Assembly (NCBI GenBank): GCA_044892505.1
Contig: CM097882.1
Location: 163,184,001 to 163,248,000, forward strand
Reading direction: 5' to 3'
Origin: Schmidtea nova
Taxonomy: Eukaryota
Length of the DNA stretch: 64,000 bases
Of this stretch, positions 1 through 32,890 are shown piece by piece. Position 1 is the first letter of the stretch, and the number at the start of each line of letters is the position of its first letter. Made by a program: the position numbers and the translations under genes. Under the pieces are notes generated by a model. It ran no database searches and was not told where the DNA came from. It saw nothing but the letters and a program-made list of their open reading frames with translations.

Positions 1-2
1 TT

Positions 3-1157
3 CAGAATATCTATGCCTAGAATACATTTCCTTTGACATATATCTGCTACTCGGAACACATGATCTATGGTCTGATTTTCAAAGTATACTGTAAGTTTTA
101 CGTTTCCTTTAATAGGTATAGTGTGTGAAGAAAGTGACAATAATTCATCATTTGTTGATGTGATATTTTGAAGTTGTTTTTCTGTTAGTAGATCTTCTTC
201 TATCAATGATGCAGCGGCACCGGTATCTACTAGCGCATTTAGTATTTGATTGTTTATCGTTATTTGGGTTCTTGGCCTCATGTCGTTCGCTTCTTCTCTT
301 TCTTCTAGTCCATAACATCCGTATACTTTCTTTGGTTTTCTTATCAGCGTGTGGGTGTTATAATCTTTTAGAGGTATATTAGTTTCGATCTCATTGCCTA
401 GATTTCTTAATTGATCCATGTGTATAATATATGGTCCTCCTTGCGTTGGTTCCGTGTGATCGAATTCTTCCGTATGATTATTTTCTTGATTGGTATTGTC
501 ATCTATTAGTCTTTCTTCTGTTGTCTTTCTTATTATTCTTTTGATATCTTTATCATGTTTTGCAGTTATTAAATATTTTGCAATAAATGGACATAAACAA
601 GCTAGCATTTTGTATGAATTGCCAAATACTTGTCTCAGCTGTCTTAATGATACTAGTGATGAACATATCATTTTTAGTAGTGCAATAGAATAATAGATGC
701 CGAGTATGGTTGAGAAGGTATTTCCTAGGATTGCAAAGTATCCCCATATACTATATAGAACTCGATAAACTACCTTCTTGAAGTGTTCTTTTGATAACAA
801 GATGTCGAAATTGTATTGTCCATCGTGGCTATTCTCGATAACTTTGCTTGCTATTATTGTTAGTACTTTCTCCTTTTCGTTCGGAAATAATAAATGTTTT
901 CTTGCACTTTCTATGTCTTCCTTTGTATAAAGTCCATTGTTATCAAAATCATTTACTTCTATGAATTCTAGTTTCTTATCTAGTTCTGTCATTTCTAGAT
1001 TTAGTGGTCTTATTGCTACCTTCTTATCTGACATCGTTATCCATGTTTCGTCATCTAATTTATATAGAGGGTCTAATAAGTTTGTACATTTATCTATTCT
1101 CTTAGGTATGTAGTTTTTATCTGTTAGTATCCTTGTTATGGGTTGTAAGTAGACTTT
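3..1157 (-). CDS. Polyprotein part 2, same frame after one TAG: end of glycoprotein, TM segment, aspartic protease
   Basis: Hand translation gives 385 stop-free codons: KVYLQPITRIL...GLYTKEDIE...VLYSIWGYFAILGNTFSTILGIYYSIALL (TM)...NALVDTGAAASLI...CILGIDIL. Not in the ORF track because it is open at the window edge. Confidence 0.88.
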
Positions 1158-4100
1158 CTATCCCTTATAAATAACTGGTAATTCGTTTGTACATTGTTTG
1201 TTCGTAGCTAATGATACACTGACTGGTTTACATTGAAATGTTTGGATTACTTCGCCGACAACTCTAGCAAATGCGCCTCTTTCTGAAAAGAGCATTGGGG
1301 CCATTAGATCCGGATTTGTAATTGCTAATGCCATTTTCGTTCTTAAAATTTCTCGGTTAAGCTTACAATCATTTATTATTGTTTCTTGATATACCCTATC
1401 TAATTGCATTAATTGATGGTGATAAAAATAGTCGATCTTATTATTGAAATATGATGAAAGTTTAATATCGTATTTGTTTACTTTTATTTTCGCATCTTTT
1501 ATTTCATCTCTTCTCAAATATAGACCTTTATAATTGGTTTGTATTATTGACTTTCCACATTTTATAATTTCCCCTTTACTAACAAATCTCAATGCTTCTC
1601 CTGAAGATTCTGTCATATATATTGTGGGTGTATCTTTTTCTTGGATTACAATTGTCTTTCGTTTTCTATCTCTTACTTTAGTTGATTCTGTATTTGTAAA
1701 CTGTTTGCCTTTAATTGCTGTAAATTTTAGCGACTTCAATATTGTTAGAGGACAATCGTATGGATCAACTTTATATATTACTATTGATTCACCAGTGTCA
1801 CAACTTACTTCTTTTGATGTACAGAAAGGGTGTGTCATCATTTTTTGTGTTATGCTGTCAAATGATGCTTTAAACTGTCTAAGTTCGACAATGTATTCTC
1901 GTCTTACAACGGCGTTTTTTATAATGTGTCCCCATATTCTATATTCCCCACCTTGACAATATCCTCCCTGTGAAGACCATCCAATTACATCTACTCGTTG
2001 TTTTACTCGTGCACCTACCTGTGCTTTTAGTTCGATTTCATGTATTTTTATCTTCTTTGATTGAAATGCATTTTCACACTCTTGTGGTGTTATTATAACT
2101 GTGTCTGGTGTAAATGACGGTCGGAGTATCGTCCTTGCTATATTATTACATACAAAGACTTCTTCAGAATATTTTATTACACATTCTTTTGCTTCTGTAT
2201 GTATAAAATCAGATTCTTGATAAACATAAAATATTTTAGGTTCTGTGGTACTTAAAGTGGTTGGATTAGCTTCTGGGCAATTTTCTACATCTAATAGTGA
2301 ATATTTTTGTCCCCATTTTGGATTCTGACAATCATAAGCGATCATACCTGTACTACCCTTTATTAAGTTAAGTAATATTGTTATCATCATTATTATAATA
2401 GGTATTGATAATCCATGATTACTTTTTCCTGATTTCATCATTGTTTTATTTATTATTTTCTTTAATCGTCTTTCAACTTCTTTTTCTTGGGTATCTATTT
2501 CTATGGTAGGTGTCTCTATCGGCACTGTTTTATCGTATAAGATTTGCCACCCACCTTTAGACTGTATCCATGGTATCACTTCGGGTTTAAATTTTATTAA
2601 TATTTGTTCGGCTACTCGATGTACTTGTTTCTCCGCATTTTTTATCAATACATATTCTGATCTATAAATGAGGTATGCCAATGCTGTTACTACTCTATCC
2701 CGATTGATTCCTGTTCTGAATAATATTTTCAAGACAACTTTTTCATTAACATCTTCAGTCACTAAGTTTTTTATATCTGTTGTAATTAGTTTAATTCGAT
2801 TCCCTATGTTATCTGCTAAAGATGATATGTTTGCGTTGGAATATAATCTTGGGTATACAGTTTTAATCAAATCTATAATTATATCTGTATCTTCACTATT
2901 TGTTGACATTTCGCTTGCAATCTCTCTCAATTTTTCCGCCATCCGTTTACTAGTAAACTTATTTGTTATTTCTGACTCTTGTGACTCATCTCCATCTTGT
3001 TTTATCGTTTCAAAATCCTCTGCTTCATATGTTACATCGTTTTTCTGACTCGCATCTGATATAGATATTCTTCTATCATTAGCAATCCATTCATCTAGCA
3101 TTGATTCTAATCCCACTTTAACTGATACGGTTATTATATTGTTATCAATTGAATTTATCCCATAGTCCATTAAAAAATCTTCACTTTGCATCTTTATTCC
3201 GTAAAAGTATAATACTATTTCATCATTGATTCCTATTTCGCTGTACCAATTTGCTCTGGCTATTTGTTTTATCTTTTTCACTTTTGTACAAGTATGTACC
3301 CCTTGTTTATGAATGATGATTTTAGGTGTATCTCCATTTTTTGTTTCTAATGTAATTTCCAAGGGTTCATGTAACTTCTCATTTTTTCGAACAAATTCAC
3401 TATAACATCTCAACATCTCTTTTATCTCAATTTCTAATTCAAACAACTTTGTTTCCTTTTGTCTTTGAGCCAATAGCGGTATCAAGTTTCTCAGATTCTC
3501 AAGATTTATCCCCTCTACATGAATTTTATTTAATATTCTCAATACTTCATTATCATCTATAGGGTACTTTTTTAAAGATTCGTCCAATTCTTGCTTTAAA
3601 ATATTATGTCTATCTATCTCTGCTAGTAATTCTTCATCTCTTTCTCTTTGTTCTCTTAATTCATCATTATCCATCTTAACTTCATTAGTAAAAGTTTTAA
3701 ACTCATTAATCAATACATTAATTTTATTCCTTTCAATTAGTCTCTCATATTTTGTCTTAAATTCTTGTAATTCATCCCTCAGCATCTCGATTTCATTATT
3801 GGGTTCTTTAACCTCCATACCATTTATTTGTTTCACCTCTGGCTCCTTTTTAAACTGCACTCTGTTTGGTGATTCAACTCGTATATTTCTACATGCTTTT
3901 GCCATATGACCATACTTTTGACAATTAAAACATTTTATTTCACCTCGAAAATTAATTTTGTCTCTTCCATCATTATTAAATGGGCTAGGTCTTCTATCTC
4001 GATTATACATTTGTTGATTTGGACTTGGTCGTCTACCTCTAAGATTATCTCTATTTGACCCAAAATTATATCTATTATCATCATATCTATTTCGATCAGA

Positions 4101-5150
4101 ATTGTTCCTTGTATTAAAGTTATCCCTATAGTTCCGATTATCATTAAAACGACTATTTTTATTATATCGATTATTATCAAAATAATTATCCCTATTATAG
4201 TTTAAACGTCTCTCATTATCTTTATTATATTCAAAGTAATTATTTTTATCATTTCTGGTAAATTCTACATAATTGTCATTTCGACTATTCGGTCTACCCC
4301 TTGGGCTATTTGACCTCTTATTATTTTCTGGTGATTGATTTCGACTTGCATTTGGACTCATCCTTTTTCTATTTTTAACAAAATTCAAATATAACTGCTT
4401 CATCTCTTCCCATGGAATATTATCATCTTTATCAGTTACCTCAGATTTCCCTATTTTACTCTCTAATTCTACTGCATCAATTGTTGCGTTAGATCTATCT
4501 CTTTGAATTGCTTCAATTCTTCGAGCTTTCTGAACTAGTTCGTTTAAATCTTCATATTCGACCATTATTAATGCCTTGTATAAATATTTTTGAATTCCAC
4601 TCCAAAATTGATCCTCTATTAATTTCGCAGTATGTTCTCCTACTCCAAAAGCTTTTCGAGCTAACTCGGTCAAATTATACACATATTCTCCAATTGTTTC
4701 TCTGCTACCTTGGTATCTATTTCTAAATTTTTGTACATTAATTTTCTGCAAATCTCGCTCAATTACAATTTCACCTCTTAAATTGTTGACTAAGTCTTCC
4801 CAATTTCTACCCTTACATTCTAAATTATTATATGCCTGCAATGCATAACCCTTTAAATATAATGGAATTCGTCTTTTTAACTCATCTTGTGTCCACCCAC
4901 AAGCCTCTGCGTATTGTGCAATTTCATCAAAAAAATCATCAAATTTCTCAGGTTCCCCTTTATACGGTTCAACTGGTAATGTCTTTATTAAAATATTACG
5001 ATTAACGTTATCAGCATCTCTATTTTGCCAAATATTACGAAGGTTATCATTATTTTCATTATTATTCGCCATTCTATATACTATTCGATTTCTTAGATTA
5101 TGCGCTATCTCTAGATTATTATCAATTTTAGAATTTTTATTATTACGCAA
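1158..5150 (-). CDS. Polyprotein part 1: Gag, zinc knuckle, coiled coil, ubiquitin-like, Bcl-2-like, TM/signal segment, chuvirus-like glycoprotein ectodomain
   Basis: 1330-aa ORF (first ATG at 5072). Ubl ~3111-3329; BH3-like LREIASEM 2907-2930, BH1-like FRTGINRDRVVTALAY 2673-2720, BH2-like WIQSKGGW 2547-2570; hydrophobic segment 2347-2412; glycoprotein starts MIAYDC (2329-2346) and contains GEVIQTFQCKPV and CTNELPV. Confidence 0.85.
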   Translation of the reverse strand: MRNNKNSKIDNNLEIAHNLRNRIVYRMANNNENNDNLRNIWQNRDADNVNRNILIKTLPVEPYKGEPEKFDDFFDEIAQYAEACGWTQDELKRRIPLYLKGYALQAYNNLECKGRNWEDLVNNLRGEIVIERDLQKINVQKFRNRYQGSRETIGEYVYNLTELARKAFGVGEHTAKLIEDQFWSGIQKYLYKALIMVEYEDLNELVQKARRIEAIQRDRSNATIDAVELESKIGKSEVTDKDDNIPWEEMKQLYLNFVKNRKRMSPNASRNQSPENNKRSNSPRGRPNSRNDNYVEFTRNDKNNYFEYNKDNERRLNYNRDNYFDNNRYNKNSRFNDNRNYRDNFNTRNNSDRNRYDDNRYNFGSNRDNLRGRRPSPNQQMYNRDRRPSPFNNDGRDKINFRGEIKCFNCQKYGHMAKACRNIRVESPNRVQFKKEPEVKQINGMEVKEPNNEIEMLRDELQEFKTKYERLIERNKINVLINEFKTFTNEVKMDNDELREQRERDEELLAEIDRHNILKQELDESLKKYPIDDNEVLRILNKIHVEGINLENLRNLIPLLAQRQKETKLFELEIEIKEMLRCYSEFVRKNEKLHEPLEITLETKNGDTPKIIIHKQGVHTCTKVKKIKQIARANWYSEIGINDEIVLYFYGIKMQSEDFLMDYGINSIDNNIITVSVKVGLESMLDEWIANDRRISISDASQKNDVTYEAEDFETIKQDGDESQESEITNKFTSKRMAEKLREIASEMSTNSEDTDIIIDLIKTVYPRLYSNANISSLADNIGNRIKLITTDIKNLVTEDVNEKVVLKILFRTGINRDRVVTALAYLIYRSEYVLIKNAEKQVHRVAEQILIKFKPEVIPWIQSKGGWQILYDKTVPIETPTIEIDTQEKEVERRLKKIINKTMMKSGKSNHGLSIPIIIMMITILLNLIKGSTGMIAYDCQNPKWGQKYSLLDVENCPEANPTTLSTTEPKIFYVYQESDFIHTEAKECVIKYSEEVFVCNNIARTILRPSFTPDTVIITPQECENAFQSKKIKIHEIELKAQVGARVKQRVDVIGWSSQGGYCQGGEYRIWGHIIKNAVVRREYIVELRQFKASFDSITQKMMTHPFCTSKEVSCDTGESIVIYKVDPYDCPLTILKSLKFTAIKGKQFTNTESTKVRDRKRKTIVIQEKDTPTIYMTESSGEALRFVSKGEIIKCGKSIIQTNYKGLYLRRDEIKDAKIKVNKYDIKLSSYFNNKIDYFYHHQLMQLDRVYQETIINDCKLNREILRTKMALAITNPDLMAPMLFSERGAFARVVGEVIQTFQCKPVSVSLATNKQCTNELPVIYKG

Positions 5151-5320
5151 AAATTTCTTTATTGTCCGTTATCAAAAATTATCTCAGTATCCGGATTAGT
5201 TTTCGTTTAAAATACGTGTCCAATAATTTTATATAAATAAATCCCGATATCAATTAATATAATCCTCTGATCGCAATTCTTATCCCCCGAATTCAATTAA
5301 TTTGTTTAAATTTAATTTAG

Positions 5321-5338
5321 TCCCGGTTCGCGGCACCA
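5321..5338 (-). promoter_or_regulatory. Primer-binding site, tRNA-Phe-like or His-like
   Basis: Minus strand reads ...CCTCAACA-TT-TGGTGCCGCGAACCGGGA: LTR-terminal CA, 2-nt spacer, then a TGG-initiated 18-mer. tRNA identity is uncertain. Confidence 0.75.
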
Positions 5339-5340
5339 AA

Positions 5341-5700
5341 TGTTGAGGTTCCAAGAATCTCAACTTGATGAACTTATATAAATAAGTCAAAGACTGGTTC
5401 TTTTCTAAACTTTATTTAAGTTATAACAATTTACAATTTTGATAAAAATTAAACAATTACCTCACAAAATATATGTATCAATTTCAAACTTATATTTTAT
5501 ATATGTATAGATGCGTGTGTGTGTGAATATTTGCAGCTTCCTGAGCTCGGATGTGTAAATAGGTATGCTCAAATTATGTTGTAATATCAATTTATTGAAT
5601 TTACAACTCTTCTTTAAAGCTTTTGATTTTTGGGTGATTTAACTGAAAAATCAGTCAGTTTATATACTAAATTTTAAGGCACTTAATCTGTCAATAATGA
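5341..5700 (-). repeat. 5' LTR of the Bcl-2/Env element; inner boundary at 5341, outer boundary not determined (end coordinate is a placeholder)
   Basis: TGTTG at 5341 (CAACA on minus) next to the PBS; AATAAA on the minus strand at 5411-5416. The second LTR is outside the window. Confidence 0.55.
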
Positions 5701-6530
5701 TTGTTATTTTGCCTCTTGAGTTGATTGAAATTGTTTTTGAAAATAGAGTTGTTTTCAAAACAGAATTGTTTTCAAAATTATTTTTTAACCTTGAGATATT
5801 ATTTCATTTTTCTGACCTTGTAGGTCAGAAATATAATTTATTTAAACAAACAGTAATTTATTTATTTTTAATTTATTTAAACAATCTGTATTATTTATTT
5901 ATTTATTTTATTATTATTATTATTTATTGAATTAAAATATTAAAATATAAATGAAAATATAATCCATTTTCCAAATAGTTAAAAAATTAATTTACATAAA
6001 ATATTTTCAACACAAAATATTTTTTCAAAATTATATAAAATTTTGTCCATCACCATAAAAATGTCAATAAATGTTCGCAATATCACAAATGATAAATTGT
6101 CAAATTATAAATTGTCATGATGATAAATTGTCATTACAAAAATTAATTTTCAACAATATTTTATTAACAGAAACAAAATAAAATTATCCCATAAAAATAA
6201 AAATTGCCAGATAGTCATCACATAAAATATTATCATATAAAATCACTAAAATCATAATGTCATTGAATTTGATATTTTCCATTGTCTATCTATTTTAAAA
6301 AAATACATCAACAAATAAAATCAATTATTCATATCATCAATTATCAAAACCAATAAAATAAAAGAAAATGTTATCACAATCAAATGTAGTTCATCAAGTC
6401 AAATTATTATCATTGTTGGCCTGGGTTCTGATTGTTGTTATCCACATACACATTTAGTCTGTACTTATTTGCCCCTATTGTATAATTTTCATCTATCTCA
6501 AAATTTTCGACTATCTTCCCTGTATCTAAC

Positions 6531-7057
6531 ATTAATTACAAAACACGTGTGCATTACAAACACACCAACAAACTAATTTTATAATCAAGCCATTTTTTAG
6601 GAAATTAAATTTTACTTATACTTTATTACAATGAAAACTCAATAAATTTATTTTATATACACGAAAAATGCAAAATTAATTACAAAACACGTGTGTATTA
6701 CAAACACACTAGCAAACTAATTTTCTAATAAAGCCATTTTGTAGTCATTTAAATTTTATACATATAATATTACAAGGAAAACTCAAAAAAGTTATTTTAT
6801 ATACATGAAAATGTAAAATTAATTACAAAACACGTGTGCATTACAAATACACCAACAAACTAATTTTCTAATCAAGCCATTTTATAGGAAATTAAATTTT
6901 ACTTATACTTTATTACAATGAAAAATACATAAAGTTATTTTATATACATGAAAATGTAAAATTAATTACAAAACACGTGTGCATTACAAACACACCAACA
7001 AACTAATTTTATAATCAAGCCATTTTATAGGAAATTAAATTTTACTTATACTTTTAA
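6531..7057. repeat. Tandem repeat, 143-144 bp unit, about 3.7 copies
   Basis: ATTAATTACAAAACACGTGTG recurs at 6531, 6675, 6818 and 6961. Confidence 0.93.
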
Positions 7058-15779: not shown

Positions 15780-18700
15780 GTAAATTTTGATATTTACATT
15801 ATAATAAGTATTATTTGATTATCTTTTTATAATTTATTAATTTTTAGTTACCAAATAAATTTTTATGGGTAACTTAAATTTTTTTTTACAAAAAAAATCA
15901 ATAACCTTAAAATATAGAAAAGGAAGCAGATAGATATCTGTACGTTTATTGTTATTTTTAGAAGAACAACTTTGTCATAAGCTTATTATTAACAAAAAAT
16001 ATATATTACGTCATACATATGCTTATGTAATCATTTAATATTTAGATCACGTTAATATTTTATTCTTAACTGCGATTAGTTATTATAATGAACATTGTTG
16101 GAACATTAATTAATTATTCAACACAATTATTTTAAAAACAATATTTTAAACAATTTGATTTGTTTAAATATGATGTGTTAGAGAAAATAAAAACTTTTAA
16201 ATTAAAAAGCGTGCTTCTTTTATGAATCTTATAAATGGTGTCAGCAACTCCCAAGTTGACCATGTTTCGGTCAAAATTCCAGCAATTTTTCAGAACCAGA
16301 GTCTGTGGTTCAAACAAGTGGAGGCTAGTTTCAAGATATCAAGAATTACAGAAGAAACTACAAAATATTTTTATTTAATTTCAAATCTTCCAACAACAAT
16401 GCTATCAAAATACGAACATCTATTGGACTCAGAAACCGAGCTTCCGTACTCAACTCTGAAAGAAGCAATCCTAGCAGAATTTGAGCTATCAAGAAAAATA
16501 TCGATAACAGAATTGATGAGAGAAGAATGCCTTGGAGATCGATCTCCATCAGAAGCACTTCAGCACATTACGGGGCAAATACAAAGAATAGATACAGCCA
16601 TGGATCCATTCAACAGTCCTATATCTCGGGAATTGTTCATGCGACTATTACCAAGCTCTGTTCAGGACATCCTATTATCGATGCCAACGACGGACCTTCG
16701 AAAATTAGCAGTCACAGCAGACAGAATAATGTTATCAAAGCGGCAATCAGTAAAGACAGTTGAACACGAAAATTGCAATACTCAAGAGTTAGGAGATAAG
16801 ACGAGAACAATTATGGAACTACAGGAAGAAATCAATGTAATACGTCAACAATTGAGGAATAAAAGCACCAGTAAGTTATGTTTTTATCATAGTAAATTTG
16901 GGCATAGGGCGAGGAAATGTCAGCCGCCATGTGATTGGAATGCAAATCAGAACGACAACTATCGATCAGAAAAATACATCAGAGAGAAATATCAAAATCT
17001 TGAACCGTCAAACATATCCTCAATGAACAACAACAATTTCAACAACAACAACAAATTCAACAACAACAACCAATTCAACAACAACAACAAATTCAACAAC
17101 AACAACACTTTTAACAACAACAGAGAGAACCAGGGAAACGAGAGAAGGTTTCATTGAACCCGAACAGTGAAACCTACAAAATCATATCCTCTTTCTCGGG
17201 ACAAAGCAACTCACAAATATTCGAAATACCAGCAATCATAAATGGAGAACAAGTTAATTTTCTCATAGATACAGGCGCTGATCTCAGTATCCTTCCCGCA
17301 AACCGTTTCAAGCCTGATAGAAATGGAGAACATCGATCTTTAGTATCCGCCAACAATTCATCAATCACATACCACGGGCAGAAAACAATTGAATTTACTA
17401 TTGAAGGATTCAGAACTAAATTTATATGGTCTTTTGCCATAGCCGGCATATCTCGTCCAATCTTGGGTGCAGATTTCCTGGCCCGTCACAAAATCGATGT
17501 TAGTTGTAATTCCAGATCAATATGTTGCCCTAGCAGTAACGAAAGGGCAGAAGCGCGGAAAAGACTATGCGATAAGATTTGTGCTACAATCAACAATCAA
17601 ACTACATTAACCACGAAACTACAAATTATCACCAACGGTTCCCCTGTAGCCCAAAGACAAAGACCACTTTTTGGAGAAAAATTAGTTGCAACAAAGAAAG
17701 AATTTGACAGACTCTTAAATGAAGGTGTAATTCGGGCAAGCAAGAGTGACTGGGCATCTCCATTAGTAGTAATTAAGAAGCCGGATGGGTCATGGCGGCC
17801 TTGTGGAGACTACAGAATGTTAAATGAAATAACCCAGCCTGACAGATATCCACTTCCGAGGATTCAAGACTTACTGAACAAGATCAACAACCCTCATATA
17901 TTCACTAAGTTAGATCTGGAAAAGGCATATCATCAAATTCCGATTTGTGACGAAGACATTTCAAAGACAGCAGTCATAACACCGTTTGGATTGTTCGAAT
18001 ATACAAAGATGCCTTTTGGACTTAGAAACGCCTCTCAAACGTTTCAGAGACACATGGACAACGTACTCCGAGAACATCAAGAACATTCCTTATCCTATAT
18101 TGATGATGTTTTGATATTCTCCAAGACTGAAGCAGAGCATAAAGCACACGTGTCGAGTGTGATGGCCAGTCTTCAAGCAGCTGGTCTCATAGTCAACCAG
18201 AGCAAATGCGAATTCCAAACCGAAAAGGTAAATTTTTTGGGTTTCGAATTAACAAAACAGGGAATCAAACCATCGAAGGAATGCACCTTAGCAATTAGCA
18301 ATTTAAAGAAGCCAACCAATAGTCAAGATTTACGACGTTTTATTGGTGGCATCGGCTATTATCACTGGCTAATTCCAAGACTGTCAGATACACTGAGTCC
18401 ACTGCATGACTTGTTACAAAAATCGGCCGATAAAAAGGAAGATCTCTTATGGCAAGACTGCCATACACAGGCCTTCATGAATGCCAAAAATTCCGTACGC
18501 GAAATCAGCAACGTCTCATACCCTAACCCATCCAAGCCATTCCTATTATGCACTGACGCATCGTCTAAAGCAATTGGAGCAAGTCTAAGTCAAATCAACG
18601 AAGAAAATAAATCATTTCCTATTGCCTTCTTTTCCAGGAAATTAAATTTAACCGAACAGAAGTATTCTACTTTCGACAGGGAGTTATTGGCAATATTCTT

Positions 18701-21700
18701 ATCTATAAAACATTTTAAGCATTTCTTAGACGGTTCTCATTTTACAGTCATGACGGACCACAAACCTTTACTACGAGCTAGACATATGAAAGATCCATCG
18801 CCAAGACAATGGCGAATAATCGAATACCTTGATCAATTTGATTTCACCATCGAATTCATAAAAGGGGAAGACAATGTAGTTGCCGATCTCTTGTCCAGAC
18901 AATGCAGTAATCAAGACCTACAAGTATCAACTGTGGAGATTAATTTCGTTGAATTCACTAAAGAAAGTTTAAAAGAAGAACAAAGGAAAGATCAGACCTT
19001 ATCTACACTGAAAAATGCAAGTCTCCAGTTATGTAGTACTATAGATGATATCCTCATTGACAACTCTACGGGGGAGACCAGAATAGTACTGCCAAAAATA
19101 TTCCGATATCAAGAATTTCTAAGAATTCATAACATATCTCATCCAGCATCCAAACCAACGATAGAATTGATCAAAGCGAGATATGTGTGGCCACAGATGA
19201 AAAGTGACATCAGAGAGTGGTGTAGACAATGTCAAAGATGTCAAGGTGCAAAGATAACAAGACACACACATGCTCCGTTAGGTACCATAGAAACCAAAGG
19301 AAGGTTTATCACAGTTCATCTAGATATAGTGGGTCCTCTGCCGAGCGTCAACAACAAAAGATATATCATGACTATGATAGACCGAGGAACGTCATGGGTT
19401 GAAGCAATTCCTATATATGATATCACAACAGATATGATAGTAAGAACGTTTGAAAGAGAGTAGATCAGTCGTTTTGGTGTTCCAGAAATTGTTATAACAG
19501 ATCAAGGAGCACAGTTTGAATCAGAAAAATTCTCCAATTTCTGTAAGGTAATGGGAATCGAAAGGAAGCGAACAACAGCATATCACCCTCAATCCAATGG
19601 GAAGATAGAAAGATGGCACAGAGCCATGAAAAACTCGATAAGAGCAGCATCAGAAAACTCATCCAAGACGTGGGCCCATGATCTCCCCAAGATTCTACTC
19701 AGTTTAAGAAACTGCACGAAGTCTAATGCGTCTCCATCGGCAGCGCAACTCACATTTGGTTGTCGAGCCAGATTACCCGGAGATTTTGTTATTAGTGAAC
19801 CAATATTAACCAATATCGAAGACAATTTAGCATCGATTCAAGAGGAAATCGACTCACAACTAAGTAACAAAAAAACAAGCCAACCAAAACAACATAGTTT
19901 TGTAAGCAAACTATTTGTTAATTGCAAAAAAGTGTGGCTTCGAGCTGAATTTAGGAAGTCGTTAGAAGATCCGTACACTGGACCATACGACGTTATAGAA
20001 AGATCCGATGACAATAAAACGTTAAAAATCAAAATTGGAGACCAAATAAAGAATGTTAGCATCGACCGTCTTAAGCCATGGATTGGAGCTGATGAATTTG
20101 CTCCGCAATCTTAAGGGGGAGTTGTGTTGGAACATTAATTAATTATTCAACACAATTATTTTAAAAACAATATTTTAAACAATTTGATTTGTTTAAATAT
20201 GATGTGTTAGAGAAAATAAAAACTTTTAAATTAAAAAGCGTGCTTCTTTTATGAATCTTATAAACATTAATGTCTATTCGTAATAAATAGTAACGTAAAT
20301 GACAATAAATAAAAATAATTATCTTTTTGTTTCACCTTTTATCTCTTTTTATTTATATAAATAATTTCCATAATGGTATGACTATAGATCAAAATTTTTT
20401 GGGGGTTTCGTTGGGTTGTTAAGTACACGGTATTTTGGCACAGCCTTTATCTAGTTTTCGATGACTAAGCGGCAGTTCCAGTAGTTTCATTGATATGTGA
20501 GTGCGGAAGCGAGTGCAAATGTAAGTGATTAAACTTACATTTTGCTTTTGAAAATAATGTTGTGTCGCTTTTTAACCTTTAACCGGACAGAAGAGTCTTT
20601 TGGATTCTTTTTTAACCATACGTAAACCAAAATTAAAATACTAATTCAAATTTAATTTTTTGCACATTTTTTTAACGAATCATGAATTTTCTTAAAACAA
20701 ATTTAAAAGGGGGATTCCCCGATAATGCGAAAATAGTAAAGTAGCTTTTAATTTCTCATTTTATGTGAGTAATTTGTCGAGTACAGTGGTTTTGTTCTTT
20801 CTAAATCTAAGTAGTTATATTGAAAAAGCATACTTGAATTACGGCAAAGTTTTTTATCAAAATATAAAAGTAAGTAATAAATATAACGATTAAATATTAA
20901 TTTAGTACTAAAATAATAATTATAAAATAGCAAAATGGGCTCAAGACAAAATATGAATAGAGGTTTGAATGAGGAACAAATTCGTCTTGCAATTGAAGTA
21001 GCATCAGATTTATAAAATTAAGATACTATTGCAGAAGAAAATTCTGATGTGGATTCGGTATCAGATAGAGAATCCAACTATACGGAAACAGATTCCGAGG
21101 AAGATGACACGTTATATTACGAAGATGAATCGATTAATGGAGAACAAAATGAAAGTTAAATCTTTATGGGAAAGGATAGGACTTAATGGGAATCGAGACC
21201 AACACTAAATCACAGACGGCCACCTCCATTCAAAAACCCACGCAAAAAAGTGAAGCTCCCTCCTGGTTATAAAATCGACAGACCTGTTGATTGTTTTTCG
21301 TTATTTTTCAACGACGAAGTAATTGAAATAATTGTGAAACATACAAATATTGAAGCTACAAGAAAAATTGGTGGTAAATGGAAAAATACTACCCCAATAG
21401 AAATCGGTGCATTCATTGAACTCTTACTTACCGCAGGTGGTAATAAGCAAGGAAATGTGAATTATGAAGATTTTTGTGATTCTCTTTTTGGAAGTCCTAT
21501 ATTTTGCGCTACTATTGGTATACGGCGTTTCAAGTTAATTTTGAGATTTCAACGATTTGATGACAAGGATACTCGGTCAGTGCATAGATCCAATGATAAA
21601 TGGGCTCCAATTAGGGATGTTTGGGAAATCATAAATAAAACTTCCTTAAAATAATATATACCAGGCCAAAACTTAACAATTGATGAACAGTTGGTTCCTT

Positions 21701-27609: not shown

Positions 27610-30600
27610 AAAAAACGTGGCAATGATTTAATAATAGAAAAACGCCAACTAAATAAATTCAACATAAACGCGATATATTTCGATTGTATAACAATATTCG
27701 TCAGGCAGCAATCAGGACAATCAATAATTAAATAGAAAATATGCAATATCTAAACAAATTAACTAATAATAATCATCTCTATACTATATATTTATACTAT
27801 CAAAATTTAATTTAATTTTTTTATTAGATAAAATTTAAAAAATTATGTAAAACAACATTTTTGATAATTCAACATACATTTTTTTAAAAAATAAAATAAA
27901 ATTTTACAATTCAGCATTCAATTTACAAATTTAAAAAAATGAAAATGTCGTTGGACATTAATTAGTGAACATACTGCTAACTTTGCAAGACGTGGAAACA
28001 ATTCTAAATTGATCCTTGTCGACATGTTTGAGAATCTTATGCTTAAATTCTCTGAAGCCCTCAGAATAAGGCAATACCAACACATATTTCGGCTCCGTGC
28101 GATTAGATCGATTTTTGTCACTTTCCGAAATTAACAAAGTACTTTTATCAGAATCAATAGGTGCATTGCATTCAGACGCACGCATACCAAGATCATTAGC
28201 ATTCAACCTTAACTTATTCACGGTCACTTTCGTCATTTTCTCAAGAAAAGATTTAGAGTAACCATTTTTAAGTAACTGATAGTGGTCTGTATACAACGCC
28301 TGAGACTTTTTGTGACTTTAAATATAAGAGGAATATGCTGAGAGGATTAGTGTTTCGTGCTTGGTCACTATCTTCTACGTTTGTGAATTCAGTAAACAGT
28401 ATTGATGCCTTGGTTGAATTGTTACTGACATGAAACATCCCGGAAGTCGAGACTGCTTGGCAAACAAATTCCCTCTGTCTCACCAACCTGAATCCAATTC
28501 GACAGACTTCAGTCACTCTATATTCACATTTACCTGAAAGATCCATAGTAATGACAAGTTCAGAAGACAAAACGTTATCTGTAGGTCATAGATTGAAATT
28601 GAGAGATTCGGCAAATGGAGAATCAGAAGCTGTCATGCTTTCATTAACATAACTGTCGTTATTCTCATCCATATTTAATTGAAGAATTTCGAATGAAAAA
28701 GGAACACAATCAGATTAAATTTTAAATCAGCTTTAATCCTTTATTAATTTAAAAAATCCAATTACAAATACATTACAAATTCCAATTCAAAAACCCTTTT
28801 TTAAACCCACAATTACCAATTAAAATTTAAAATTCTGATAAACCCCGTATTATTTAAACAACCTTTTTTAAACAAGTAAATTAGCCATTAATTAATAGTT
28901 TTTTTTATAATTACCAAATATAATTTCCTAGAATCAAAATTTCATAAAAAAAATTAATTTTGAATATCAACAAATATATTTACAGACTTCGTTTTGGAAT
29001 CTTCATTTTATTACTTTATCGACTATTTCAAGAGCAACCATTTAAAAATAATGTTATTTTAATAATTAAAAGGCAATATTGTTTAAAACATCTATGTTGA
29101 AAGTAATAGATCTGGCTTGTTCATCATTGATATGTGCAAGTTACCCATATATCGAAATTACAGTTAAGTTTCTATCATATTTTAATAATTTTATATTCTC
29201 AATTGTTACGTAAATAATAAGTAAAATTAACAATCAAAATTAAAAATCAAAATTTTTATATAATAGTTAAAAGATGCGATCTCTCGCAGTTCTTGCTAAT
29301 TTTTCAGATTACTGAATTTATTTTAAAGCATTTTTTTAATAAATTATAAAAATATGTTTTACAGTTAAAAGAAATTCAAAGTCCAAATCTGTTAATGACA
29401 ATGACCGATTATTTACCAATGATTTTGAAACTGTAAGAAAATGCTTTTATTCTCCAACATTAAGTGTTAGCCAAATAAATGAATCTAAGGAATCAAGAAT
29501 TAAAATAAAAAGAGTTGCAATCAGAGCAAAAAGTGAACCACGTCAGCTAAAAATATCACGAATACAAGTACATNNNNNNNNNNNNNNNNNNNNNNNNNNN
29601 NNNNNNNNNNNNNNNNNNNNNNNNNNNNNNNNNNNNNNNNNNNNNNNNNNNNNNNNNNNNNNNNNNNNNNNNNNNNNNNNNNNNNNNNNNNNNNNNNNNN
29701 NNNNNNNNNNNNNNNNNNNNNNNNNNNNNNNNNNNNNNNNNNNNNNNNNNNNNNNNNNNNNNNNNNNNNNNNNNNNNNNNNNNNNNNNNCCTTTGATCTT
29801 TTTTTATTATTATTATCAATAATTCTCATAATGACTATAGATCAAAATTTTTTTTTATATAAACAATAACACAATTTTAATTTTAACACAATTAATTTTA
29901 GAAGTTCTAAAATTAGCAATAAATTCAGATACTGTCATAATTAAAGAAAAACCATTCAAACAAATTCATGGATTAGCCATGGGTAATAACCTTTCTCCCA
30001 TCTTAGCCATCTTCTACATGAACTTTATAGAATCTAAGATCATATCTTTTTTTGGGGACAAAATACTTTTCTGGAAACGATACATCGACGACATCTTCAT
30101 AGTCTCCACAATCCCTCTCAATCAAATCCTATCACACGCAAATTCTACTAACACCAACATACAATTTACTTTTGAAACACCGAACACAGAAGGTAAAATA
30201 CCGTTTTTAGATACCATGGTAAGTTTCACAAAAGGCCAAGATACACTAAATGCAAACACCGAGCTATATTCTAAAGGTTTACATAGCGGTCATATCCTCC
30301 CATGGAAAAGCCACGTTCCACTTCAACGCAAAATCGCATTACTAATAGGAGAAAGAAAAAGAGCCATAAGAAACTGTTCAGACGCAAACAAAATACAAGA
30401 AACATTAGAAAACTTCAAAATACGATTCCTCCAAAATGGATACCCTGAAGACTTTGTAAAGAAACACTTCCTTAACGAACCATACCACAATAAACGCAAC
30501 AATAGAAAACGCCAGAAACACAATAACAATAACAAACACACAACATATCTAAGATTACCTTTCCTAAATGACACTACAGCCAACAAAATCACCAACATTT

Positions 30601-32890
30601 TTAATCAAACAGATTTGCCTATCCACATCCGTCCAACGTTCATAACCTCCGCACCGTTAAAATCACAACTCCGAAAGCCACCAATTTCCAACATCTCCAA
30701 ACATAAATGTCTTTGTCGTTCCACAACCCGATGCTTTTGCTTTTCCAAAAATATAGTATATAAACTTTCTTGTCAAAAATGTGACGCTACTTACATAGGA
30801 GAAACACATAGAACTTTTCGCACCCGACTTAATGAACATACTAAAATCAAAACCAGTAATTATTACGAACACTGGGAAAAAGTACATAAAACAACTCCAT
30901 CTATAGAAGAAACAAAATGCCAGATCCTACAAGAGGGATTCAAAAATTCATTACAAAGATTAGCTTCCGAGACTTTTTTCATAAAAAAATACAAACCGTC
31001 CATCAACATTCAATTCGCACAAAAAAATTAAAATAAAATAAATTTTTTCATCCAATAAAATCATTATAAAATATTAAAAAAATAATTAAGGCTACTATTT
31101 AGGATTAAGTAAATATAACGATAGAAATACACACTTGATAAAGGCTGTGCCGAAATATTGTGTTATTGTTTATAAAAAAAAAATTTTGATCTATAGTCAT
31201 NNNNNNNNNNNNNNNNNNNNNNNNNNNNNNNNNNNNNNNNNNNNNNNNNNNNNNNNNNNNNNNNNNNNNNNNNNNNNNNNNNNNNNNNNNNNNNNNNNNN
31301 NNNNNNNNNNNNNNNNNNNNNNNNNNNNNNNNNNNNNNNNNNNNNNNNNNNNNNNNNNNNNNNNNNNNNNNNNNNNNNNNNNNNNNNNNNNNNNNNNNNN
31401 NNNNNNNNNNNNNNNNNNNNNNNNNNNNNNNNNNNNNNNNNNNNNNNNNNNNNNNNNNNNNNNNNNNNNNNNNNNNNNNNNNNNNNNNNNNNNNNNNNNN
31501 NNNNNNNNNNNNNNNNNNNNNNNNNNNNNNNNNNNNNNNNNNNNNNNNNNNNNNNNNNNNNNNNNNNNNNNNNNNNNNNNNNNNNNAAAAAACACAAATT
31601 GCGCACACAGACTACAAAGTCTGGTGCAACAGACGAACAACCAGTGTCAAAACATGGGTTTATGAATACAAACAAAATATCAATTGAGTCAATGACAATC
31701 TCCGGATAAGCCATTGCCCAAAATAACACGTCAATTTTAGTTTAAAATGAAGGTTTTGACCACTGTTTTTTTGTTCATTATGAATTTCTTCCGAAAGACA
31801 AAACGACCAAGAGTATTACATCGGTGTTATGAAATTTTTGCGTGAAGCTGTGCATTTGAAAAGAAAAAATGGAAATTTTAGTGATTTTTTCTTGTCCAGC
31901 AGACTCAAAAAGCTACTTTGAGGAACTTATTTTAATAGCATTGATGTAATAAAAGACAAATTGAAGTCTCTCATGGCTATGCCGAAGATTGATTATGAAA
32001 AAAACATTCGAGCACTGGATTAAACGTTGTCACAAATATATTGCTTAGGGTGAGGATTAATTTAAAGGGTAACTTCGAAGGATTAATTTGCCGCCTGTCA
32101 ACTGTTTTTTTAATTATTTCACTATGATGATTTATCGTTGAACCGGTAAGTCATACCCTTTTGAGCTAGGCTATTCAGATCTCGTATTTTGGTAAAATTG
32201 TTAATGCTATCTCGTTTACAAACATTGAGACTAATAACAATTATTAATTTTTAAGATTCGAAACTCTGGAAAGTGGGAAATTCCTAAATCTGACATTACT
32301 AAGAGCTATAGAATAGGCTCCGGCTCATATGGTACTGTATATAAAGGCTATTGGCATGGAAATGTTGCAATTAAAGAATTAAATGTCTTTAATCCATCTT
32401 CAAGTCAGCTTCGAGCATTTATAAATGAAGTGTCTGTTTTAAGAAAAACTAGACACGTTAATATTGTTTTATTCATGGGGTATATTATCAAACCGAAATT
32501 AGCAATTGTGACTCAGTGGTGTGAAGGTTCAAGTCTTCATAAACATATCCATGTTTTGGAAAAGAGTTTTAATTTCCATGATATTATTGATATCTGTAGA
32601 CAAATATCTCAAGGAATGGAGTAAGATTTTAGTATTGATTTTAAAAAAATATCAGTTTTTTTGATCATTTAAATTCTGAATTTTTTCAATAAATGATGGA
32701 GAACTTTTAGAATCATTATTAATTTTGACCCTAAAATTATTTTATGAAAAATATTATTAAATTACAATTTTATTTTCTTAATCTTTTAATGCTTACTTTT
32801 TCTAAATTACACTTTAAATATATATATATATATATATATATAAACAAGCATTCATATACTAAAACCATATATGTTAGAACAATAGTCAAG

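Follow-up and report, generated by a model that had tools for sequence, protein, structure and literature searches.

A 64,000-nucleotide stretch of the Schmidtea nova genome (G000:C1:163184001-163248000; hereafter the window) begins with the 5′ half of a long terminal repeat (LTR) element of the Ty3/Gypsy (Metaviridae) type, 13,256 bp in total, in which an envelope glycoprotein (Env) is encoded between Gag and Pol in a single long open reading frame (ORF1). The element is best explained as an enveloped endogenous virus that would make one membrane-threaded polyprotein, cut by signal peptidase, and be released as enveloped particles, a reading to which we assign a probability of roughly 70%; judged by the sequence, the particles would likely be infectious. 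On the minus strand ORF1 opens at position 5168, has its first ATG at 5072 and reaches the window edge, its only interruption being a TAG at 1160-1158. A sequence-only reading of the window had described one frame broken by one TAG, which stands, and had placed its start at 5150, which does not. When the contig was followed leftwards, as that reading had proposed, the adjoining stretch (L001) continued the frame through a dUTPase-like region, reverse transcriptase (RT), RNase H (RH), integrase (IN) and a signal-like segment, ectodomain, transmembrane (TM) segment and tail; ORF2 and the 3′ LTR follow. In sibling copies ORF1 is one 2,960-codon frame with the order Gag-CCHC-Ubl-Bcl-2-like-Env-protease (PR)-(dUTPase-like)-RT-RH-IN, Ubl denoting a ubiquitin-like domain. 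The env region thus lies in frame between gag and pol, as had been claimed.

The element shows the features of Metaviridae: paired TG...CA LTRs, a tRNA primer-binding site, a polypurine tract (the purine run ahead of the 3′ LTR is short), a short target-site duplication (TSD) and gypsy-type domains in the Pol order PR-RT-RH-IN. The LTR end and primer-binding site proposed upstream of the frame were both found there (Table 1). The insertion target is a 143-bp tandem repeat. A DNA search of the genome returned 422 candidates, and all 40 that were scored had an identity of 99% or more across 1,100 bases. A search with Env returned 3,344 candidates; among the 106 scored, 73 matched at 95% identity or more (family A, that of the window's element) and 33 at 88-89% (family B). 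Stop-free frames were present in 15/73 family-A matches (2,992 codons) and 16/33 family-B matches (2,992 or 2,993 codons). Four-bp TSDs flanked 14 of the 16 copies inspected, the remaining two having no 5′ end in the fetched DNA, and the LTR pairs of family A were 99.6-99.9% identical. The element is therefore young, present in many copies and recently active. The TAG is a private mutation of the window's copy: each of the 15 other anchor-bearing copies compared (10 picked for their open frames and 5 not) has a sense codon at that position. The window's copy, being defective, would depend on siblings acting in trans. Two further observations concern copies and primer. A near-identical copy at L003 (G000:C3 near 68.748 Mb) is apparently interrupted or truncated in gag and has the Ubl-Bcl-2-Env block intact. 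The genes for the element's primer tRNA, tRNA-Phe, form a tandem array with a 240-bp period at L052 (G000:C1 near 566.9 Mb); the tRNA 3′-end pattern has 2,591 matches genome-wide.

Env carries matches to the Pfam family Monjiviricetes_fusion (PF24664) on either side of the TAG (E 3e-44 and 7e-38). A model of the Ubl-Bcl-2-Env region, built from an open sibling with an 86-row alignment (mean predicted local distance difference test score, pLDDT, 79), gave Env a long central helix and PH-like beta domains of the gB/G type. Its best Foldseek match in the PDB was herpesvirus gB (E 3e-14), and in BFVD the matches were glycoproteins of chu-like viruses (E 1e-38); compared with the PDB by sequence, Env gave one chance-level match only. 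By its predicted fold, Env is a class III fusogen. It shares conserved cysteines with viral glycoproteins. The Cys-rich glycoprotein named by the sequence-only reading was recovered, with the correction that the ectodomain has no sequons in this family (see below). Env is also under strong purifying selection. Families A and B are 78% identical overall, and Nei-Gojobori dN/dS values between them, which are rough since dS is near saturation (mostly 1-1.7), were 0.03 for Gag, 0.04 for Env and 0.02 for RT, 0.15 for the Ubl and the post-integrase part, and 0.32 for the Bcl-2-like domain. The independent pair of families C and D showed the same pattern, with identities of 85% in Env (dN/dS 0.03), 93% in RT, 48% in the Bcl-2-like domain and 60% in the post-integrase ectodomain.

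The Env-before-protease order extends beyond these families. PF24664 lies ahead of the protease in about 20 long unnamed public proteins. In a FastTree tree of Env, which took in 45 of 93 stand-alone candidates, a branch with support 96 separated 27 polyprotein Envs from the 45 stand-alone glycoproteins, and the groups on it mirrored those of the RT tree. In the latter (a quick tree, from which P0249 was left out for short coverage) 25 rows with env in the polyprotein, the ankyrin-bearing P0241 among them, grouped with support 95; no named Burro1-4 element was among the rows. Both trees fit a single ancient capture of Env, which would have been inherited together with RT. In some public relatives Gag immediately precedes Env and no Bcl-2 domain was detected; others gain ankyrins or extra proteases. 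As separate observations on these proteins, extra retropepsin-like domains occur between Env and PR or behind the integrase in P0002-P0004, P0006, P0250, P0261 and P0268, C2H2 fingers in P0003, and ankyrins plus ubiquitin in P0241, while P0009 (HBK71150.1) is an Env-Pol polyprotein of this clade filed under a Flavobacteriaceae metagenome-assembled genome, likely host DNA binned by mistake. Further families of the same genome (L032-L037, L050-L051) have frames of 3,393-3,401 codons that encode four CCHC knuckles, two Ubl domains, the Bcl-2-like domain and Env; their ORF2 has intact DEDDh motifs, and their primer-binding site differs, being presumably tRNA-Trp-like.

The membrane-threaded topology that had been proposed fits the sequence. 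ORF1 has four hydrophobic segments (near residues 886-904, 1456-1474, 2752-2770 and 2910-2928), and the polyprotein is predicted to cross the membrane of the endoplasmic reticulum (ER) four times. The first segment, an internal signal peptide with a charge of +3 before it and 0 after it, ends right before (A/G)YDC, the position of the N-terminal signal in stand-alone glycoproteins; such a segment was also seen in the relatives inspected. The second is the predicted Env anchor, and the third and fourth lie behind the integrase, where they would delimit a small membrane protein. A signal-like segment followed by a C-terminal TM segment was found behind the integrase in 21 of the 24 relatives with enough sequence (26 were inspected and two truncated ones left out), one lacking the unit and two being partial or ambiguous. 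The position and topology of this post-integrase membrane protein are well supported. Its ectodomains consist of repeats of ~85 amino acids with an L-x-P-x-T-x-Y motif, and a profile of them matched 18 PDB entries weakly (E 0.045-1.8), all of them cell-surface receptors with fibronectin type III (FN3) domains. The named neighbours of the family-A domain in the Atlas were FN3 membrane proteins, at lead-level scores of 0.76-0.80, and one relative, P0269, has a clear Ig domain behind the integrase. A single-sequence search of the domain against the PDB gave no match. The ectodomain is tentatively regarded as FN3-like, and the protein may help particles attach to cells. As an observation on the same region, the last 30 residues of ORF1 (L012 333-422), a predicted cytosolic tail rich in tyrosine, are 87% identical between families A and B, compared with 47% for the ectodomain; their coding sequence and the untranslated beginning of the ORF2 frame overlap in part.

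Taken together, these features suggest the following route. A single polyprotein would be translated at the ER, and signal peptidase would cleave after both internal signals, yielding equal amounts of three membrane-bound pieces: Gag-Ubl-Bcl-2, with the first signal as its tail anchor; Env with PR-RT-RH-IN, its cytosolic loop anchored at both ends; and a small type I protein whose ectodomain evolves fast and is probably FN3-like. Gag, Pol and Env would in this way meet on one membrane with neither a frameshift nor a separate env message. Assembly would take place on that membrane, retropepsin would release the enzymes at maturation, and particles would leave by budding into the secretory pathway and then fuse with other cells. 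The Bcl-2-like and Ubl modules and the dead nuclease of ORF2 would most likely be host-interaction factors. In flaviviruses and hepaciviruses the signal peptide of the glycoprotein that follows serves as membrane anchor for the capsid protein, with signal-peptidase processing on the ER; these are unrelated positive-strand RNA viruses with other fusogens, and the analogy is one of design only. It is a bolder proposal, and one that we hold to be less probable than its opposite, that the env-bearing elements form one clade of reverse-transcribing viruses that are infectious and have a flavivirus-like polyprotein and a two-part entry machine (a class III fusogen captured long ago between Gag and Pol, plus a fast-evolving FN3/Ig-type attachment or decoy protein behind the integrase), in which Pol would be a cytosolic loop pinned to the envelope at both ends and packaged through the membrane, not by Gag-Pol fusion.

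Among the domains ahead of Env, the sequence-only reading had named a Gag, a CCHC knuckle, a Ubl and a Bcl-2 fold, and beyond Env a protease, all of which were recovered. Knuckle, Bcl-2 fold and protease have Pfam matches, that of the Bcl-2 fold (E 1e-4) being under the curated cut-off, and Gag has a weak PNMA match, backed by Retrotrans_gag in relatives. A Pfam search of the family's own sequence gave no direct match for the Ubl; an iterated profile, which contains the query itself and whose E-value is thereby inflated, tied it to the equivalent position in public relatives. At that position relatives match Pfam ubiquitin (one at E 4e-5) and Rad60-SLD, a SUMO-like family, and the predicted model of the Ubl has a beta-grasp-like order of strands and helix. 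For the Bcl-2-like domain, a four-sequence profile gave Bcl-xL as its best match (E 9e-8), and a helical bundle, BH2 and a C-terminal anchor are present, the anchor being deduced from the position of the signal peptide.

The odds that the Bcl-2-like domain prevents apoptosis are about even; this activity is unproven because the domain lacks the canonical NWGR motif of BH1 and evolves fast. It may instead be a fast-evolving scaffold or an antagonist of innate immunity that does not inhibit apoptosis by binding BH3, for which the odds fall just short of even. Poxvirus proteins with a Bcl-2 fold, which act as innate-immune antagonists or scaffolds, provide the model. NWGR was missing from 11 of 11 aligned element domains, with variants that differ among relatives; the domain was detected in 11 of the 40 sequences searched, many of them partial, and in both subfamily pairs no other identified folded domain is less conserved (42% identity between A and B, and 48%, as given above, between C and D). 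However, BH2 is retained, Bcl-xL is the best profile match, and the domain ends in a predicted tail anchor, as cellular Bcl-2 proteins do; moreover, several viral Bcl-2 homologues with an altered BH1 still block apoptosis. In Burro1 an anti-apoptotic role is assigned, in the available text of PMC13465017 (citing Lee 2026), to a RING/BIR region, and this region is absent from the element's family, which again favours the scaffold or antagonist. The alternative touches one domain and is compatible with the enveloped-virus reading.

Several points weigh against enveloped particles. The reading derives from sequence and predicted models. The Env ectodomain has no N-glycosylation sequons in family A, where ~3.2 would be expected, and one in family B, while among the 78 comparison rows, stand-alone glycoproteins almost throughout, none had zero; nor was an R-x-K/R-R site found when looked for in Env. 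The topology comes from hydropathy, motifs and homology, with no dedicated predictor, and the positive-inside charge that is clear at both signals is weaker at the two TM segments (+1/+3 and +2/+7). For the post-integrase domain, the profile-profile probability for FN3 is a weak 66%, a profile from public relatives only, without families A and B, failed to detect the domain of A and B, and the model of the region (pLDDT <50) was too poor for structure search. The RT tree, finally, leaves one outgroup clade unseparated from two basal env-bearing rows. The missing sequons and furin-type site, and the lack of any evidence for particles other than sequence, would be accounted for if the element replicated inside the cell and kept Env to scaffold membranes or to mediate local fusion or transfer between cells, releasing no free infectious particles. 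Since Pol is covalently joined to the Env tail, frame constraint alone would hold the region open. This leaves unexplained, however, the Env dN/dS of 0.03-0.04 and the 85-89% identity at near-saturated dS, as well as the cysteines conserved with viral glycoproteins and the confident model of a full class III fold, and purely intracellular replication is considered unlikely. That the Ubl-Bcl-2-Env block arose by nested insertion or through misassembly, or that the TAG is a site of programmed read-through, is very improbable and was rejected: the stop codon of the window's copy is all that speaks for it, whereas sibling copies with their own TSDs keep the whole block in one frame across many independent insertions, Env also precedes the protease in three further families of the genome and in the public proteins, the 15 other copies compared read sense at the TAG, and contigs of three runs (library type not specified, depth not used as evidence) cover 30/30 bins and support no joint across the block.

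In the enveloped-virus reading, ORF2 would be expressed separately. ORF2 of family C matched ISG20L2 (E 2.5e-7) and ISG20 (E 1e-5), and ORF2 of families A and B is homologous to it (E ~1e-13) with the catalytic motifs gone. By these matches ORF2 is an ISG20-like (DEDDh) nuclease, dead in the family of the window's element. Pfam searches of ORF2 from families B, C and E gave nothing meaningful, and a search against the Atlas no usable match. With a dN/dS of 0.91, the ORF2 frame seems not to be coding over its initial 110 codons. All four families scanned have a T-rich, AG acceptor-like site 3-26 nt ahead of the ORF2 ATG (L001 4980-4954; L038, L033, L037), a strict acceptor pattern having 0 occurrences in the 8.9 kb of ORF1, and the 5′ LTR contains a donor-like site; a spliced ORF2 message is therefore likely, as far as pattern scans can indicate. 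The same scan saw no acceptor-like site ahead of either internal signal. Within Pol, the interval between PR and RT holds a domain of ~105 amino acids that is conserved in 25 sequences and has no Pfam dUTPase match; the name dUTPase-like is taken from the available text of PMC6431247.

The sequence-only reading had put forward the domain order as possibly new, and here it was anticipated. According to the available text of PMC6431247, ORF1 of the planarian Burro elements encodes Gag with CCHC knuckles, a Ubi2/SUMO-like domain, BCL-2, Env between BCL2 and PR, and a dUTPase-like domain after PR and before RT, env being placed in frame between gag and pol; Env there matches mononegavirus fusion glycoproteins and is linked to gypsy Env, whereas the fold predicted here matches gB and chuvirus G. 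Burro1-4/GYPSM1 of Schmidtea mediterranea and a Burro-like element of Dugesia tigrina share with the window's element one ORF with Gag, CCHC, Ubi/SUMO-like, BCL-2-like, Env, PR, a domain that goes by the name dUTPase-like and RT-RH-IN, a gypsy-like nature and high copy number. As described in the same text, however, Burro exceeds 30 kb, with an ORF1 of 4,873-5,140 amino acids and 2-3 knuckles, compared with 13.3 kb, 2,960 amino acids and one knuckle, and it has MATH, BIR/RING and ankyrin domains, for which families A and B gave no Pfam match at E≤0.5. The element is a compact Burro relative: the core order is shared, whereas Burro's size and its MATH, BIR and ankyrin domains are not. The portion of PMC6431247 seen for Burro mentions no signal peptides, post-integrase membrane protein, class III assignment or nuclease ORF. 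A literature search, mostly not aimed at the question and covering the Burro literature in part, found neither the post-integrase membrane protein nor a class III assignment described for such elements, so details may be known.

Two other systems show partial likeness. Anakin elements are LTR elements with a chuvirus-type glycoprotein; they belong to the BEL/Pao lineage of mosquitoes, unlike the window's element, and neither an env in frame between gag and pol nor Bcl-2 or Ubl domains are described for them in the available text of PMC7642597, which locates env behind pol in Roo, Tas and Cer-7. Rotifer LTR elements likewise place an ORF for a DEDD-family nuclease behind pol, and their pol includes a dUTPase; by the available text of PMC5408684 their ORF3 is a DEDDy exonuclease, while the nuclease here is ISG20/ISG20L2-like (DEDDh), with catalytic motifs lost in families A and B. 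What is added to the rediscovered order is the class III assignment, the predicted four-pass topology and the conserved post-integrase membrane protein, which lead to specific predictions of cleavage sites and of three membrane-bound products. If correct, they would imply that assembly follows a route taken by neither retroviruses nor errantiviruses. A compact, recently active family under half the size of Burro represents a minimal core of the design, and its many open copies allow the hypothesis put forward in 2019, of Burro-like elements as proviruses, to be tested through native RNA, proteins and particles.

Table 1. Features of the element, in window coordinates unless a contig is given
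Feature	Position	Strand	Remark
Target-site duplication TTAA, 4 bp	6532..6535	.	second copy beyond the 3′ LTR
5′ LTR, TG...CA, 1,191 bp	5341..6531	-	
Splice-donor-like site in 5′ LTR	5455..5462	-	pattern scan only; candidate partner of the ORF2 acceptor
Primer-binding site	5321..5338	-	complementary to 3′ end of host tRNA-Phe(GAA)
Gag capsid-like region (ORF1 ATG 5072)	4473..5000	-	weak PNMA match (E 0.05); Retrotrans_gag in relatives
CCHC zinc knuckle, single	3891..3932	-	Pfam zf-CCHC, E 1e-4
Ubiquitin/SUMO-like domain	3108..3365	-	profile link to relatives plus model
Bcl-2-like helical domain	2535..2957	-	BH2 PWIQSKGGW kept; BH1 NWGR changed to NRDR
Internal signal peptide	2346..2408	-	predicted cut before MIAYDC; would stay as tail anchor of Gag-Ubl-Bcl-2
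Env ectodomain, PF24664, predicted class III (herpes gB/chuvirus G) fold	768..2345	-	
TAG inside Env	1158..1160	-	sense codon in 15/15 other anchor-bearing copies
Env membrane-proximal region and transmembrane helix	645..767	-	
Retropepsin (DTG)	3..281	-	Pfam, E 7e-6
3′ LTR	G000:C1:163177276-163178468		versus 5′ LTR: 2 mismatches and one 2-bp indel

Elsewhere in the window, positions 16201-20114 (+) hold an ordinary Gypsy-type element with gag and pol, the pol stop lying near 19463; by eye, its pol ends straight after the integrase, without a membrane extension. A 396-amino-acid frame at 29841-31031 (+) looks like a Penelope-type RT (YIDD) with a GIY-YIG nuclease.

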